64,000 bases of DNA, taken from Cladosporium halotolerans (Eukaryota). Shown piece after piece: positions 46,704-51,389 of the stretch. The notes below the pieces were generated by a model, which made no database searches, was not told where the DNA came from, and saw nothing but the letters and a program-made list of their open reading frames with translations. The translations under genes were made by a program, and so were the position numbers. The stretch's first letter is position 1; each line of letters begins with the position of its first letter. Location: NCBI RefSeq assembly GCF_011745625.1, contig NW_027191469.1, positions 310,001-374,000 of the forward strand, written 5' to 3'.

Positions 46704-48803
46704 TCAAATCGGTGTGTCAGTCCCGTTGACGCCTTCCGGACCAGCACTTGGTTCCGCTGAATCATCGTCCTGTATCTCGATAGGGTCTTCGTGCGTGTTG
46801 TTTGTCTGGGTGCCAGATGAGCGCGCGACATTAGCAGGAGCCGCAGCGCCGGGTGTAGCAGGAGGGGCGCCGTTGCCAGATGGCATGCGCGCCGCGCCAA
46901 CCTCATCAGACTCTCCCATGCCATTGACTTCTGGCCAGAGACCCTTCCATAGCCAGAGGGCTTGTGCGAAAGTCGCCTCGCAGCGCTGCAGTTCCTGGCG
47001 ACCGTTTCCTTGTGTCATGCCGTTAGCTACCTCGTCGACGATCGACCTGCAAGCGTCGACGAATTTGCTGAAGGCCGGTGACGTCCAATTAGGGATCAAA
47101 GCCTGATGAAGGGCGTTGATGTGAGCTTCATTGCTGGTTGAGTCCGGGCCGAAAGGGTTACCATTATTGTTGGACTGTCCAGTCATGAACGAAGGGAGCG
47201 AGTAGTTTGACCCAGAGGTATTGTTGGAGGTGAAGGTGCTGGCGTAGTGCCACGACTTTCGATAGCACTAGGATCATATGTTAGAATAAGGACACCATGA
47301 GAACTTGGTCATAGACATACATGTTCAGTAGCCCAAAGCAAAACCAGGCCTTCCAGCAAAGATGCGCCAGAGCTTGAGGTGCTGGCAAACAGATCGATGA
47401 AACCTTTCGTTGCGGGCTTCATGTCTTCTGAATCGATCTGCAAACCATACTTGCTGGCGGTGTTGTCGAAGAAATTCATTTCACGGCGAACGTTGTTCAG
47501 CGTGCTGATTAGGAGGTCCATGGTACGGAATATTGTGTTATCCATCGTGATTGCGGTATCCGGGAGCCGCATCTTGCCGAGTAGACGTCCGATGAAAGTC
47601 ACAAAGGCACGTGAGATGTGGGCGTCCTGTGACAGCCATTGGCATAGCGCGTGTGCGGACAGAGTACCACAGCCTGCGTGAGAGAGGAAAGGAAGTTGAG
47701 TGGCCGAATCGAGAGATCCCGAATCGCGGCTCAAGAGATGATTGACAAGAGACGGCGTTGGTCCGGGTGGAGGCGGTGGCGCCATGGGTTGGCGATTAGG
47801 CGTCACAGGCACACCCGGATAGGAGTAGCCTTTGGCAGCAAGGGGAGGAGTGGGATTCGCATGAGGTCGCGGAGCGGCGCTCAGATGCGGATTCGCGACG
47901 TTGCCGCGTAGAATGCTGCCACTCTTTCTCTGAGGCGGCATCTTTTCTGGTTCGGGGCTTTTCTCCCCGGCTACTGTCCGCCTTTCCTTCTCTGCAAGGT
48001 AGGTCGGACACCTGAGCAGATGCTCAATTTGACGAGTAGTGTTTTTTGCTCGCTTGAAGCCGCAATGCCTGCAGCGACTGCGTGTGCACTACATGACAGC
48101 ATTAGTGCTGTCGCGAGAAGTGATGACTATCTGCAAATGAAGGATCAAGGTACCCTTCGCTCGTCGTCGAACGAGTCCTCAAACTCCTATCAATGGCCGT
48201 CAGTTTCGTCATCATGCTAGTTCTTCGGCCGGTGCATCAATCTACCCTTTGGAGATCTGCATGAGGTTAGATTTAATTACATAGAGCGCCAAGCCAAAGC
48301 GCCGGAGAGGAAGTACCTGGTCTTTTCTGCTGTAGTACCGAGCAGCTAGTCTCTGCACCTGCTGCGGCAGGTGGACTGGCTTGGTCGCTATTTTGTTGCC
48401 GTTGGCTGAGAAAGGAAAGTCAGCATGCACGCGGTACTCGGCGTTGTAGTGAAAAGCAGACGCGAACGCTCTGGCGCGAAGCCAGACGTGGGTTTTGAGC
48501 CGAAAGAGGAAAGGGCTGATTTCACGCTTACTCTTCGCTGGTCGTCCCGTGAAAGGAAGGGCGTGGGACTCTCTGGTTGTATGGGTTCACTGGGCCCATT
48601 TCTTGCCCATTGCCTGCTTCTCTCCATTCGAGGTACGCCGGGCATGTCGTGAGATGGGTCTTCTTACGGCCTAGGCTGACGGTACTGACGGTCCAGGTCT
48701 TGCAGTGCAAGCAACGAATCGTCGGAATCTCTGGGTCGCCGCTCTGGTGAGTGTCAAGTGTCTCAAACTGGCTGTGAGTGTAGACGTCCCCTGTACGAGG
48801 CAT
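46704..48803 (-). CDS. Tandem BED-type zinc finger + TenA/heme-oxygenase-like fusion protein (578 aa); exons 48803-48532, 48405-48317, 48256-48246, 48186-48154, 48088-47321, 47267-46704
   Basis: All five introns are GT..CTRAY..YAG and phases match (1737 nt). Finger 1: IRCLHC..KKTHLTTC. Finger 2: SRCRHC..AKNTTRQIEHLLRC. TenA-like motifs ATQLPFLSHAGCGTL, WLSQD, RREMNFF, LWATEHCY and IPNWTSPAF. Confidence 0.8.
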
Positions 48804-49520
48804 TGTTGCTTGGACAGGTAGCCAGTACAGCGCACAACGTTTGGACACGCTCTGGCCGATATCAATTGGTCGTAAGACGGCCGTGAACGACTGAAAAACA
48901 GCTTGTAACGGCGATAATTGGCGGCTCTAATACCACCTAAACCAGATGGGGATCAAGACGGAGCCTGCCGCCTTTGCCAAGTCGCTCTCAGAAAGAATGA
49001 GAATGCCTCCGTTGCCGTAAGACAAGGCACATGGACAATTTCTGTCCAAATGACGAATCCACAGCCTTCTGCAGCCGTCGATTGCAGCAACGAGCAACCG
49101 TCTGCGTTGATCTAAGTTTTCGTTGGCACCGAACAGAGGAAATGCGTTGCGAAGAACCTGAAGAACGACATGCGGTGCCCCACCAAGCCGCTACAGGAAG
49201 CCAGCCCACCGGGGTCTGTCGTTAGCCCGAACCATGGACAAGCCAATTCTTGGGACGGCTCGCTCTTATCTTTTCCTTTGAGCCATCTTTTTCCTTTAGG
49301 AGCTTTCTGTCATCGCTACCGCAGCTGTTCTTTCTGCTAAGTTGACTCTCGAGGTCTCTCGTTCATCAGGCAGGTTCTCACTATCCTCAGGAATTGACTT
49401 CGACGTTTGCGACGCTTCTCGCCGATGTCGCTCTCAATGTTTGGTAGCACTAACCATCTTCACAGGCGCATCCACTGTCTGAAACAGCTTTCGAACGACT
49501 GTACGCCACGCCCTACCACA

Positions 49521-49813
49521 ATGCATTCTAGTAGCAAAGCCGCATCTGGAGTCCAAGATCAAGGTATCGCCCGTAAACAGCATGAGCCGGTGCTCGACGC
49601 TTAGCTGCGGCCCGTGACACGAGCGCATTACGCATACCGAAAGGTATGGACGCTCTGTCCGGACCGCAGCATTCGTCGGGCTGAGATCATACGGCCTTGA
49701 ACTTGCTCTGGGTAAAGCCAGCGAAAGGATCATGCTTTTGAGACAATCTGAGAGTGAGGTGTGAGAAACTGACTTCTTTAGGACACCATGGAAGAGCGCG
49801 GAACAATGGATGA
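49521..49813 (+). promoter_or_regulatory. Inhibitory uORF created when the proximal donor (49564) is spliced to the acceptor (49781)
   Basis: ATG 49521 reads MHSSSKAASGVQDQ, splices in phase 1 to G-HHGRARNNG*, and overlaps the permease ATG (49788) out of frame. Confidence 0.65.
49579..49736 (+). promoter_or_regulatory. TPP (thiamine pyrophosphate) riboswitch aptamer in a 5'-UTR intron of the NCS1 permease
   Basis: P1 AGCATGA/TCATGCT, P2 GCCG/CGGC, P3 GCTCGACG/CGTCGGGC with a long extension, CTGAGA pyrimidine-sensing junction, and P4/P5 ACTTGCTCTGGGTAAAGCCAGCGAAAGG matching the fungal pattern ACTTGATCTGGATAATACCAGCGAAAGG. Intron is GTATCG (49564) ... CTGAC ... TAG (49781). Confidence 0.93.
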
Positions 49814-51389
49814 AGCGGCCGGTGTGTCGCAACGCCAGAGAATGCAAGATGTTGAAAAGATCGGGCCAAACCTTGCGCCCCAAACGTCTGTCGCTGCGCA
49901 GACGGATTCTACGGATGCCGAAGCAACTGCTGGCCGTGGACCAATGCGATACATGAAGTCTTTCGAGAAGACCTTAATTCGCTACAATATGGAAGCGCGA
50001 GGAATCCAAAGAGTCATGCCGGAAGACCGCCACAGCCTTACTCAACTGGGCTTTGGCCAGATCGGTATCCTGTGGTTCAGTGTCAACTTGGCCGCCAACA
50101 ATATCACTCTTGGTATGCTGGGTCCCGCCGTGTACCATCTCGGCTTCACTGAGGCGAGCTTGTGCGCGGTGTTCGGTATGATTGTAGGCATCCTCCCAGT
50201 CGCGTACGTCGCTACGTTCGGACCAAGGTCTGGTAACAGGACCATGGTTTTCGCCCGCTACTCGATGGGATGGTACCCTGCGAAGATCATCGTGATCTTG
50301 AACATCATCGTTCTTCTTGGATACTCTCTCCTCGATGCTGTGATCGCCGGACAGATGATCAGCGCTGTCAGCGGCAGCGGCAACTTGAGCGTCGTCGTGG
50401 GCATCATCGTGGTCGCCGTAATCACCTGGGTCATCACGACCTTCGGCTACAGCGTCTTCCACCTGTACGAGCGATACGCCTGGGTTCCCCAAATCATCGT
50501 GGTCTCCATCCTAGCCGGCGTCGCCGGCCCCTCCTTCGACCTGACCTCCAACCCATCCGAAGGCGAAGCACCCCTCACAATCAAAGGCAACCGCCTCAGC
50601 TTCTTCAGCCTCTGCCTAGCCGCCGCCATCACGTACAGCGGCGGCGCCGCCGACCTCTTCGTCTACTACCCCGAATACGCGCCGCGCCGCAAAGTCTTCT
50701 TCGTCACCGCCCTCGGCCTCGCCGCCTCCTTCACCTACGCCTTCATAGTCGGCATCGGCCTCGGCTCCGGCATCGCGCGCAACACCGCCTGGAGCGACGC
50801 GTACACCGTCTCGCAGGGCGCGCTGATCGTCGAGGGCTTCGCGCCGCTGGGCGCCTTCGGGTCTTTCTGCGGCGTGATCGTGGCCCTCGGCCTCGTCGGC
50901 AACATCATCCTGCCCGTCTACGCGTCGGGCGTCGACTTCCAGACGCTGGGGACGAATTTCGAGAAGATCCCGCGCGTCGTGTGGAACTCCGTCGGCGTGG
51001 TGATTTTCACCGTCTGCGCGATTGCTGGGCGCGCGAACCTCGCGACGATCTTTACGAACTTCCTCGCGCTTATGGGATACTGGGTGTCGATCTGGATCGC
51101 GATTCTGCTGGAAGAGCACCTGCTTTTCCGCAAGTGGCGCGGACTGGGCTGGAATTGGGATGCGTGGGACGACGCGCGCAAGCTGCCTGTTGGTCTTGCG
51201 GCACTGGTTGCGTTCCTCGTCGGTTGGGCGGGCTCGATTCTGTGCATGGCGCAGGTTTGGTATATTGGTCCGCTGGCGGCGCTGGTGGGAGAGTATGGTG
51301 GAGACATGGGCAACTACGTTGGGTTTGCTTGGGCGGGGATTGTGTTTCCTGGTCTGAGGTGGTTGGAACTGAGGAAGTTTGGACGGTGA
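49788..51389 (+). CDS. NCS1-family purine-cytosine permease (Fcy2/Tpn1-like), probably transporting thiamine or a precursor
   Basis: EARGIQRV, LWFSVN, FGPRSGNRTMV..RYSMGW, FHLYERYAW, ADLFVYYP, NFLALMGYW, AQVWYIGP and ELRKFGR; about 12 hydrophobic helices. Substrate is inferred from the riboswitch. Confidence 0.92.
   Translation: MEERGTMDEAAGVSQRQRMQDVEKIGPNLAPQTSVAAQTDSTDAEATAGRGPMRYMKSFEKTLIRYNMEARGIQRVMPEDRHSLTQLGFGQIGILWFSVNLAANNITLGMLGPAVYHLGFTEASLCAVFGMIVGILPVAYVATFGPRSGNRTMVFARYSMGWYPAKIIVILNIIVLLGYSLLDAVIAGQMISAVSGSGNLSVVVGIIVVAVITWVITTFGYSVFHLYERYAWVPQIIVVSILAGVAGPSFDLTSNPSEGEAPLTIKGNRLSFFSLCLAAAITYSGGAADLFVYYPEYAPRRKVFFVTALGLAASFTYAFIVGIGLGSGIARNTAWSDAYTVSQGALIVEGFAPLGAFGSFCGVIVALGLVGNIILPVYASGVDFQTLGTNFEKIPRVVWNSVGVVIFTVCAIAGRANLATIFTNFLALMGYWVSIWIAILLEEHLLFRKWRGLGWNWDAWDDARKLPVGLAALVAFLVGWAGSILCMAQVWYIGPLAALVGEYGGDMGNYVGFAWAGIVFPGLRWLELRKFGR

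Follow-up and report, generated by a model that had tools for sequence, protein, structure and literature searches.

What kind of switch governs a permease gene of Cladosporium halotolerans whose leader carries a candidate thiamine pyrophosphate (TPP, vitamin B1) aptamer within an intron? The gene lies in a 64,000-nucleotide (nt) stretch of contig NW_027191469.1 (assembly GCF_011745625.1, positions 310,001 to 374,000 of the forward strand), which we call the window and number from its first letter; all features described below are on its + strand, save for one neighbouring region (46704-48803) on the minus strand. For that region, head to head with the permease gene, a Pfam scan of four raw ORFs and a PDB sequence search with two of them yielded no relevant match. 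The main open reading frame (ORF), 49788..51389, encodes a 533-aa NCS1 permease of the Fcy21/Tpn1 type (PF02133, E 1.6e-18), and its ATG at 49788 stands in the context ACCATGG. A first-pass annotation, made from the letters of the DNA, had read the leader as a complete NMT1-like expression platform, with two donors flanking an upstream ATG, a single acceptor, and a pairing that masks the proximal donor. Our own reading is that the locus is probably a eukaryotic TPP riboswitch acting on splicing in the NMT1, or 'Type I', way, seated within intron 2 of the 5' untranslated region (5'UTR) of the NCS1 permease gene. As a riboswitch-controlled gene it is a new example of an already known type of switch, with a well-formed layout.

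The aptamer and the leader transcripts

Is the aptamer a genuine one? The predicted element occupies 49579..49736, where a match to RF00059, a canonical fold and covariation of the stems come together, and it lies within the intron 49564-49781, upstream of the main ATG. Its stems are P1 (49579-85/49730-36), P2 (49586-89/49692-95), a long P3 (about 49592-49681), P4 (49702-04/49725-27) and P5 (49708-11/49718-21); the CUGAGA core of J3-2 is found at 49681-86, and the GCG motif of the pyrophosphate arm at 49721-23. When the aptamer region is folded alone (49575-49742), the minimum free energy (MFE) structure is the canonical TPP architecture. P3, at about 90 nt (49592-49681), contains an inner hairpin capped by GAAA, and in one contig of sequencing run X7, 77 other letters stand in place of 79 bases of P3; this has the look of a strain variant.

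For comparison, metagenome contigs were scanned and supplied 80 orthologous loci (L001-L080). With a first regular expression the aptamer was found in 51 of the 80, and 13 of the other 29 have too little upstream DNA for a judgement; by eye it was also seen in L020, L024, L025, L031, L041, L042, L043, L052, L053, L055, L059 and L076. A relaxed regular expression yielded 50 non-redundant leaders, which together with the window make up alignment A3 (51 sequences). Across A3, 92.8% of the cells of P1, P2, P4 and P5 are paired, with compensatory changes in 7 of the 18 pairs, so that the P1-P2-P3 and P4-P5 arms around the junction are both present and both held by base pairing that has changed in concert. 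The covariation of the aptamer stems is 0.203, against 0.102 for shuffled data (none of the 500 shuffles reaches it) and no more than 0.080 when the partners are slid, and the pairs of P3 show compensatory changes too among the 8 closest relatives. The columns of the core motifs, CUGAGA, ACGG...GAAC and GCG, are invariant or nearly so. On this comparison of sequences, the predicted TPP aptamer is real and conserved. By eye, no clear aptamer appears in L011, nor in L061, L062, L073, L074 and L075. These last five, more distant homologs (56-62% identity), have, at the place of P1/P2, a GCATGAACACCTGTT-like sequence without the CTGAGA core, about 100-400 nt upstream of the match to the coding sequence, and this may be a decayed or a different element.

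Which introns are removed from the leader? The contigs of four runs (X1, X5, X7 and X13) were compared with the locus. X13 covers 49780-50172 only, and X5 has no joints, so that both are uninformative on the leader. X1 and X7 contain spliced joints, and for that reason we take RNA to be present in them. The proximal joint 49563^49782, which has GT..AG ends and skips 218 bases, is found in a contig of X1 (depth 19.7) and in a contig of X7 (depth 50.4). Because the joint recurs in contigs from two studies, the proximal donor GTATCG (49564..49569) and the acceptor AG (49780-49781) are confirmed. The acceptor is fixed by the joint, and a branch-like CTGAC preceding it (49769..49773) is read from the sequence. 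Contigs that retain the intron are also found in X1 and X7, at depths of 29.6 and 36.8-45.1; the intron 49564-49781 is thus removed in some transcripts and kept in others. Both forms keep the upstream ATG at 49521, and they are the forms that an NMT1-type model calls OFF.

The 5'UTR is longer than the first-pass annotation assumed, and a further intron, of the GC-AG kind, lies upstream. Contigs of X1 and X7 run from 49300 and 49316 to 49366 and then join 49463, a joint that skips 96 bases and has 5 ambiguous letters; a GC..AG placement fits the splice signals. This gives an exon 1 whose 3' part is 49300..49369, and an intron 1 at 49370..49465 with donor GCAGGT, a branch-like CTAAC (49450-49454) and acceptor CAG. 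Since the contigs reach 49300 and 49316 and join by way of this upstream intron, the 5'UTR starts upstream of 49300; no ATG occurs within 49300-49369. In X1 and X7 cover is zero at 49393-49454, inside the GC-AG intron, which appears to be fully removed in both and constitutive. Its donor, AGGCA.GT, is invariant in all 7 of the close relatives that were aligned, the only ones compared on this point. Exon 2, 49466..49563, is 98 nt long, and contig cover of 49463-49564 is unbroken in X1 and X7. A third donor-like sequence, GTAAAC (49573-49578), stands 7 nt before P1, and related leaders show CAG directly before GTAAAC at that place; no joint starting at 49573 is present in the contigs of the four runs.

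Conserved leader elements and the predicted masking helix

Are the remaining parts of the layout conserved? The candidate distal 5' splice site, GTACGC, lies at 49501..49506. At -105 to -55 from P1, GTACG is present in 37 of the 50 leaders, compared with 332 of 8077 background windows (4.1%), and a donor-like GT[AG][ACT][AG] occupies the distal position in 48 of the 50. If this donor were spliced, 49466-49500 would stay in the mRNA and 49501-49563, which holds the upstream ATG (49521..49523), would be removed. That ATG has an A at -3. After proximal splicing its ORF, 49521-49563 joined to 49782-49813, is 24 codons long, overlaps the main ATG out of frame and stops at 49811-49813; it would be expected to interfere with the main ORF. 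All of these signals, from GTACGC (49501-49506), ATG (49521-49523) and GTATCG (49564-49569) to the AG at 49780-49781 and the main ATG at 49788, are where the first-pass annotation placed them, and the overlapping upstream ORF that it described is likewise confirmed.

The upstream ORF shows a second kind of conservation. Among the 49 leaders that have the anchor element GAT CAA G, 46 have an open upstream ATG, and in 39 of those 46 it is in frame with the anchor. The spacing between the two takes seven values, 24, 27, 30, 33, 36, 45 or 48 nt, all of them multiples of 3, so that the reading frame has been kept through repeated insertions and deletions. Across the leaders, 8 to 16 codons of the upstream ORF precede GAT CAA G, and synonymous changes are almost absent from GAT CAA itself; constraints at the level of the RNA and of the frame overlap there. 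Judged from a listing rather than from a tally, most leaders have an upstream ORF that crosses the main ATG in another frame once the first proximal donor is used. GATCAAG directly 5' of the proximal GT is nearly invariant in the 51 sequences, and it persists in L027, L028 and L030, though in these the adjacent GT is gone and its role has passed to a donor further downstream. Conservation of GTACG, of the in-frame upstream ATG and of GATCAAG across the orthologous leaders lifts the layout above chance. The proposed platform is supported as far as the layout of its two donors, upstream ATG and single acceptor goes, the proximal joint being present in contigs and the other parts conserved; distal splicing is the part that went unseen.

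How would TPP act on these elements? At low TPP, CAAGAUCAAG followed by GU (49554-49565) would pair with CCUUGAACUUG (49695-49705), hiding the proximal donor and blocking the formation of P2, J2-4 and P4. The distal donor GUACGC (49501) would then be spliced to the same acceptor, the upstream ATG would be removed, and a translatable mRNA would result (ON). At high TPP the aptamer would fold and the proximal donor would be freed; in the proximal-spliced or unspliced forms the upstream ORF would block translation of the permease (OFF). In this scheme, use of the distal donor, binding of TPP and the direction of the switch are inferred.

The pairing in this scheme comes from folding. The donor-masking strand, CAAGATCAAG followed by GT (49554..49565), contains the conserved GATCAAG, and its predicted partner in the aptamer, CCTTGAACTTG (49695..49705), comprises the 3' end of P2, J2-4 and the start of P4. 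The unconstrained MFE structure of 49466-49800, at -116.1 kcal/mol, pairs 49554-49564 with 49695-49705 (CAAG.UCAAGG:CCUUGA.CUUG), and in the free ensemble CAAGAUCAAGG pairs with the same partner with probabilities of 0.78-0.95. The first-pass annotation had instead matched TCCAAGATCAAG with CTTGCTCTGGG, in P4/P5. Nine pairs can be drawn on paper for that register, but its probability in the ensemble is near 0 and forcing it costs 6.7 kcal/mol more. It appears, then, that the annotation had the architecture right and that the partner strand is probably shifted, which leaves its interpretation partly supported. The free ensemble energy is -122.5 kcal/mol, compared with -119.4 kcal/mol when the aptamer is forced, and the probability of P1 in the free ensemble is 0.03. 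Because forcing the aptamer costs only 3.1 kcal/mol, a two-state switch driven by the ligand is energetically feasible. The models support a ligand-free fold that would mask the proximal donor and exclude the aptamer fold.

Comparison with other leaders gives a similar picture. An RNAalifold consensus of the 8 closest sequences again contains the 49554-49564/49695-49705 helix, along with CCGUA:UACGG. The 8-nt segment immediately 5' of the proximal GT pairs, in the window, with the 3' half of the aptamer with a probability of 0.78. Over 44 leaders the mean probability of the same pairing is 0.42, against 0.09 when 12 nt are shuffled, and it exceeds 0.5 in 19 of the 44 leaders, against 0 of 44 shuffled sets. 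Two registers were compared in the alignment, register A in P4/P5 (49702-49705) and register B at 49696-49700; 79.7% and 73.8% of their cells are paired, versus at most 53% when slid, and significant covariation is absent from both. The predicted masking helix is supported, accordingly, by conserved complementarity, by folding and by precedent, without covariation.

Has the masking helix moved in the clade of the window? Orthologs whose aptamer contains CTTGATC fit the P4/P5 register, and in L017, L056 and L076 the aptamer has CTTGAAC and the leader GTTCGAG or GTTCAAG. One path, which we put forward tentatively and would bet slightly against, is that the platform of this Dothideomycete clade slipped register: the CTTGATC target was lost (it now reads CTTGCTC), CCTTGAAC was gained, and GATCAAG followed by GT, itself unchanged, came to invade P2/J2-4, not P4/P5.

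A further conserved motif of the leader, (G)AGTAGCA, lies at 49529-49535 in the window. It follows the upstream ATG by 6-9 nt and is kept in distant orthologs and in most of L001-L080. A complement to it, CTGCTACT or GCTACT, overlaps the branch site in L026, L033-L040, L060 and L069, and also in L046, there with a single mismatch that is left uncompensated. For the clade of the window, consensus folding and duplex tests found no partner for the motif. A helix proposed by RNAalifold, AGTAGC.GCCGAGTC with the region of the 3' splice site, occurs in the 7 closest relatives and was set aside, being broken in the window itself. A general long-range helix that would join the region of the upstream ORF to the branch site or 3' splice site was rejected for the window as well (mean z score -0.39, with 5 of 41 leaders below -2 and the window at +2.15).

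Weighing the alternatives

Several results weigh against a two-donor TPP switch at this locus. X13 is the only run on record as RNA; for X1 and X7, from two studies, the RNA label is only guessed. The first-pass annotation had proposed a count of the two junctions, and the distal one, 49500^49782, occurs in none of the contigs of X1, X5, X7 and X13, which may miss rare forms. Contigs of exon 2 are unbroken across 49500, and those of exon 3 (X1, X7 and X13) all begin at 49780. The missing distal joint is absence of evidence and no disproof, because contigs can drop rare forms and the thiamine state of the samples is unrecorded. The leaders are related to one another, so that the counts of 44 to 51 leaders given above are not counts of independent events, and the upstream ORF has exceptions in L027, L028, L030, L036, L045, L048, L063 and L064. 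The covariation of register A, 0.091 versus 0.083 for shuffled data (61 of 500 as high), and of register B, 0.119 versus 0.120, is not significant. Judged by duplex energy, 54 of 512 other 20-mers from this region bind the aptamer's 3' half at least as well as the masking strand does, and with a median rank of 12% over 41 leaders we dropped duplex energy as evidence for masking. For the aptamer itself, a local RF00059 search of 551 nt gave 35.1 bits (E 3.3e-5), short of the gathering score of 54.3, and at that score Rfam found 0 matches in the whole 64-kb window; J4/5 (49705-49707) is GCU in the window, against GAU in most relatives and in the Rfam consensus.

Do these results favor another mechanism? 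One would think that a single donor might suffice, with TPP shifting the balance between removal and retention of the 218-nt intron, GTACGC at 49501 unused, and the permease translated through leaky scanning of the upstream ATG. Proximal splicing and retention are indeed the only events seen in the contigs. Such a switch, however, leaves the conserved GTACG (37 of 50 leaders versus the 4.1% background) unexplained. Moreover, both observed forms carry the upstream ATG, with its A at -3, so that neither is a good template; we regard a single-donor switch as unlikely. An ATG-free mRNA could also arise by skipping of exon 2, if the GC donor at 49370 were joined to the acceptor at 49781. Exon 2 is short (98 nt) and internal, with the GC-AG intron upstream of it, and skipping would remove the upstream ATG just as distal splicing would. 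The joint 49369^49782 was not found, however, in the contigs of the four runs, and distant lineages keep the distal GTACG, the GC-AG intron having been compared in the 7 closest relatives only. Exon skipping is in our view quite improbable.

Two more radical explanations concern the nature of the platform and of the aptamer. NCU01977 is DUR31, a solute carrier 5 gene in which an intron of about 600 nt lies between coding exons and an alpha-alpha' pairing engages the 3' shoulder of P1 (PMC3597705, Li and Breaker 2013; PMC5997356). By analogy, a leader element near the distal donor would pair with the P1 3' shoulder, loop out the proximal donor and promote distal splicing. Complementarity between leader and P1 shoulder does occur, with z below -2, in 11 of the 41 leaders tested, and L033 and L034 show strong complementarity between leader and 3' splice site. 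The window itself is weaker than its shuffles on both counts, z being +1.26 for the P1 shoulder, where an alpha-alpha'-type pairing is absent, and +2.15 for the 3' splice site. The gene, besides, belongs to NCS1 and not to the DUR31 family, and its intron is 281 nt and non-coding, not one of about 600 nt between coding exons (PMC3597705). We give this mechanism next to no credence here. We also considered, and rejected, a coding exon placed as in NCU01977 upstream of the riboswitch intron, since stops close the frames that lead from exon 2 to exon 3 for both donors. In L033 (640-870) and L034 (190-420), the regions of the distal donor and the upstream ORF are strongly complementary to the branch site, the 3' splice site and the start of exon 3, in duplexes of -37.6 kcal/mol (z -2.8) and -37.7 kcal/mol (z -3.6), respectively. 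Such a pairing would place the distal donor beside the acceptor, in a manner reminiscent of the looping in NCU01977.

Might the aptamer instead be a relic that has lost TPP binding, in an ordinary 5'UTR intron that is alternatively retained? The low Rfam score and the GCU in J4/5 are what one would cite for this. The score, however, stems from the long P3 insert: the RF00059 alignment misplaces P1/P2 into the inner hairpin of that insert, and both the shortfall and the misplacement are due to its length. Of 20 ortholog loci scanned, picked from the 80, the 3 that reach the gathering score (L033, L034 and L046, at 54.9-56.1) have a short P3. The core motifs, moreover, have stayed invariant and the stems covary over the 51 sequences, the window clade included, and P3 shows compensatory changes among the 8 relatives. 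A relic is very improbable. As to J4/5, GCU is common to all 8 sequences of the clade and to L056, and L012, L017 and L021 have GC there, one base fewer. The two-donor TPP switch of the NMT1 kind is the reading that we retain.

Relation to known switches and the probable role of the permease

To our knowledge, the mechanisms of eukaryotic riboswitches have been solved by experiment in very few genes, namely NMT1, THI4, NCU01977/DUR31 and plant THIC, and the NCS1 transporter group is known mainly through genome surveys. Mechanisms have reportedly been reconstructed for the nucleoside transporter group by Moldovan et al. in 2018. How does the present locus compare? As in NMT1 and THI4 of Neurospora crassa, a 5'UTR intron houses the aptamer, and a single acceptor faces two 5' splice sites, the distal one a candidate here, that enclose an upstream ORF; the aptamer is complementary to the region of the proximal donor; and TPP would turn the gene OFF (PMC3597705, PMC5997356, PMC5882874). 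It also differs. The gene here encodes a transporter and not a biosynthetic enzyme, and an additional, constitutive GC-AG intron lies upstream. In the NMT1 and THI4 riboswitches it is P4/P5 nucleotides that mask the proximal 5' splice site (PMC3597705), whereas the masking partner predicted here consists of the 3' end of P2, J2-4 and the start of P4. With NCU01977/DUR31 the locus shares a TPP riboswitch on a transporter gene and, presumably, a choice of 5' splice site and the OFF state at high TPP; it differs in its NCS1 family, in its 5'UTR intron and in the absence of an alpha-alpha' pairing from the window.

By description, the gene fits a group of fungal genes that includes AN4526.2 of Aspergillus nidulans, a gene of Stagonospora nodorum and TPPsw-NUC of A. 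oryzae, in which a 5' TPP aptamer accompanies a Tpn1/Fcy21-like NCS1 permease (PMC5997356, PMC8786325), as it does here, where the protein matches of the permease bear the corresponding labels. A 'putative nucleoside transporter' group, Tpn1/Fcy21-like, was listed among fungal riboswitch genes by Donovan et al., who credit Moldovan et al. too (PMC5997356); the A. oryzae TPPsw-NUC has been modelled (PMC8786325); and 'Type I' regulation, by alternative splicing based on upstream ORFs or stop codons, was predicted for fungal transporter genes (Mukherjee et al. 2018, PMC5882874). TPP riboswitches on the NCS1 transporter group are therefore already published (PMC5997356, PMC5882874). A limited literature search, beyond whose reach lay Moldovan et al. 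2018, turned up no apparent splicing experiment on this group, and PMC12329505 and PMC11683625 yielded nothing on splicing of this transporter.

What, then, does the locus add? General knowledge of how such switches work is left unchanged. New for the NCS1 group are support from transcripts for the proximal junction, a comparison of 51 sequences that points to leader elements under selection (the distal GTACG, the frame-locked upstream ATG and GATCAAG), and a concrete pair of alternative structures. Should the slip of register prove true, then together with the frame-conserved upstream ORF it would mean that selection acts separately on the decoy ORF and on the masking helix, and that such a helix is able to shift its position along the aptamer as lineages evolve. 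The nearest relatives of the permease are unnamed metagenome proteins, 86% identical and aligned from residue 1, and the closest named ones, from Dothideomycetes at 64-74% identity, go by the names of purine-cytosine permease FCY21 or of vitamin B6 transporter. The permease probably imports thiamine or a thiamine precursor, and the riboswitch marks it as a candidate importer of thiamine or of a pyrimidine precursor.

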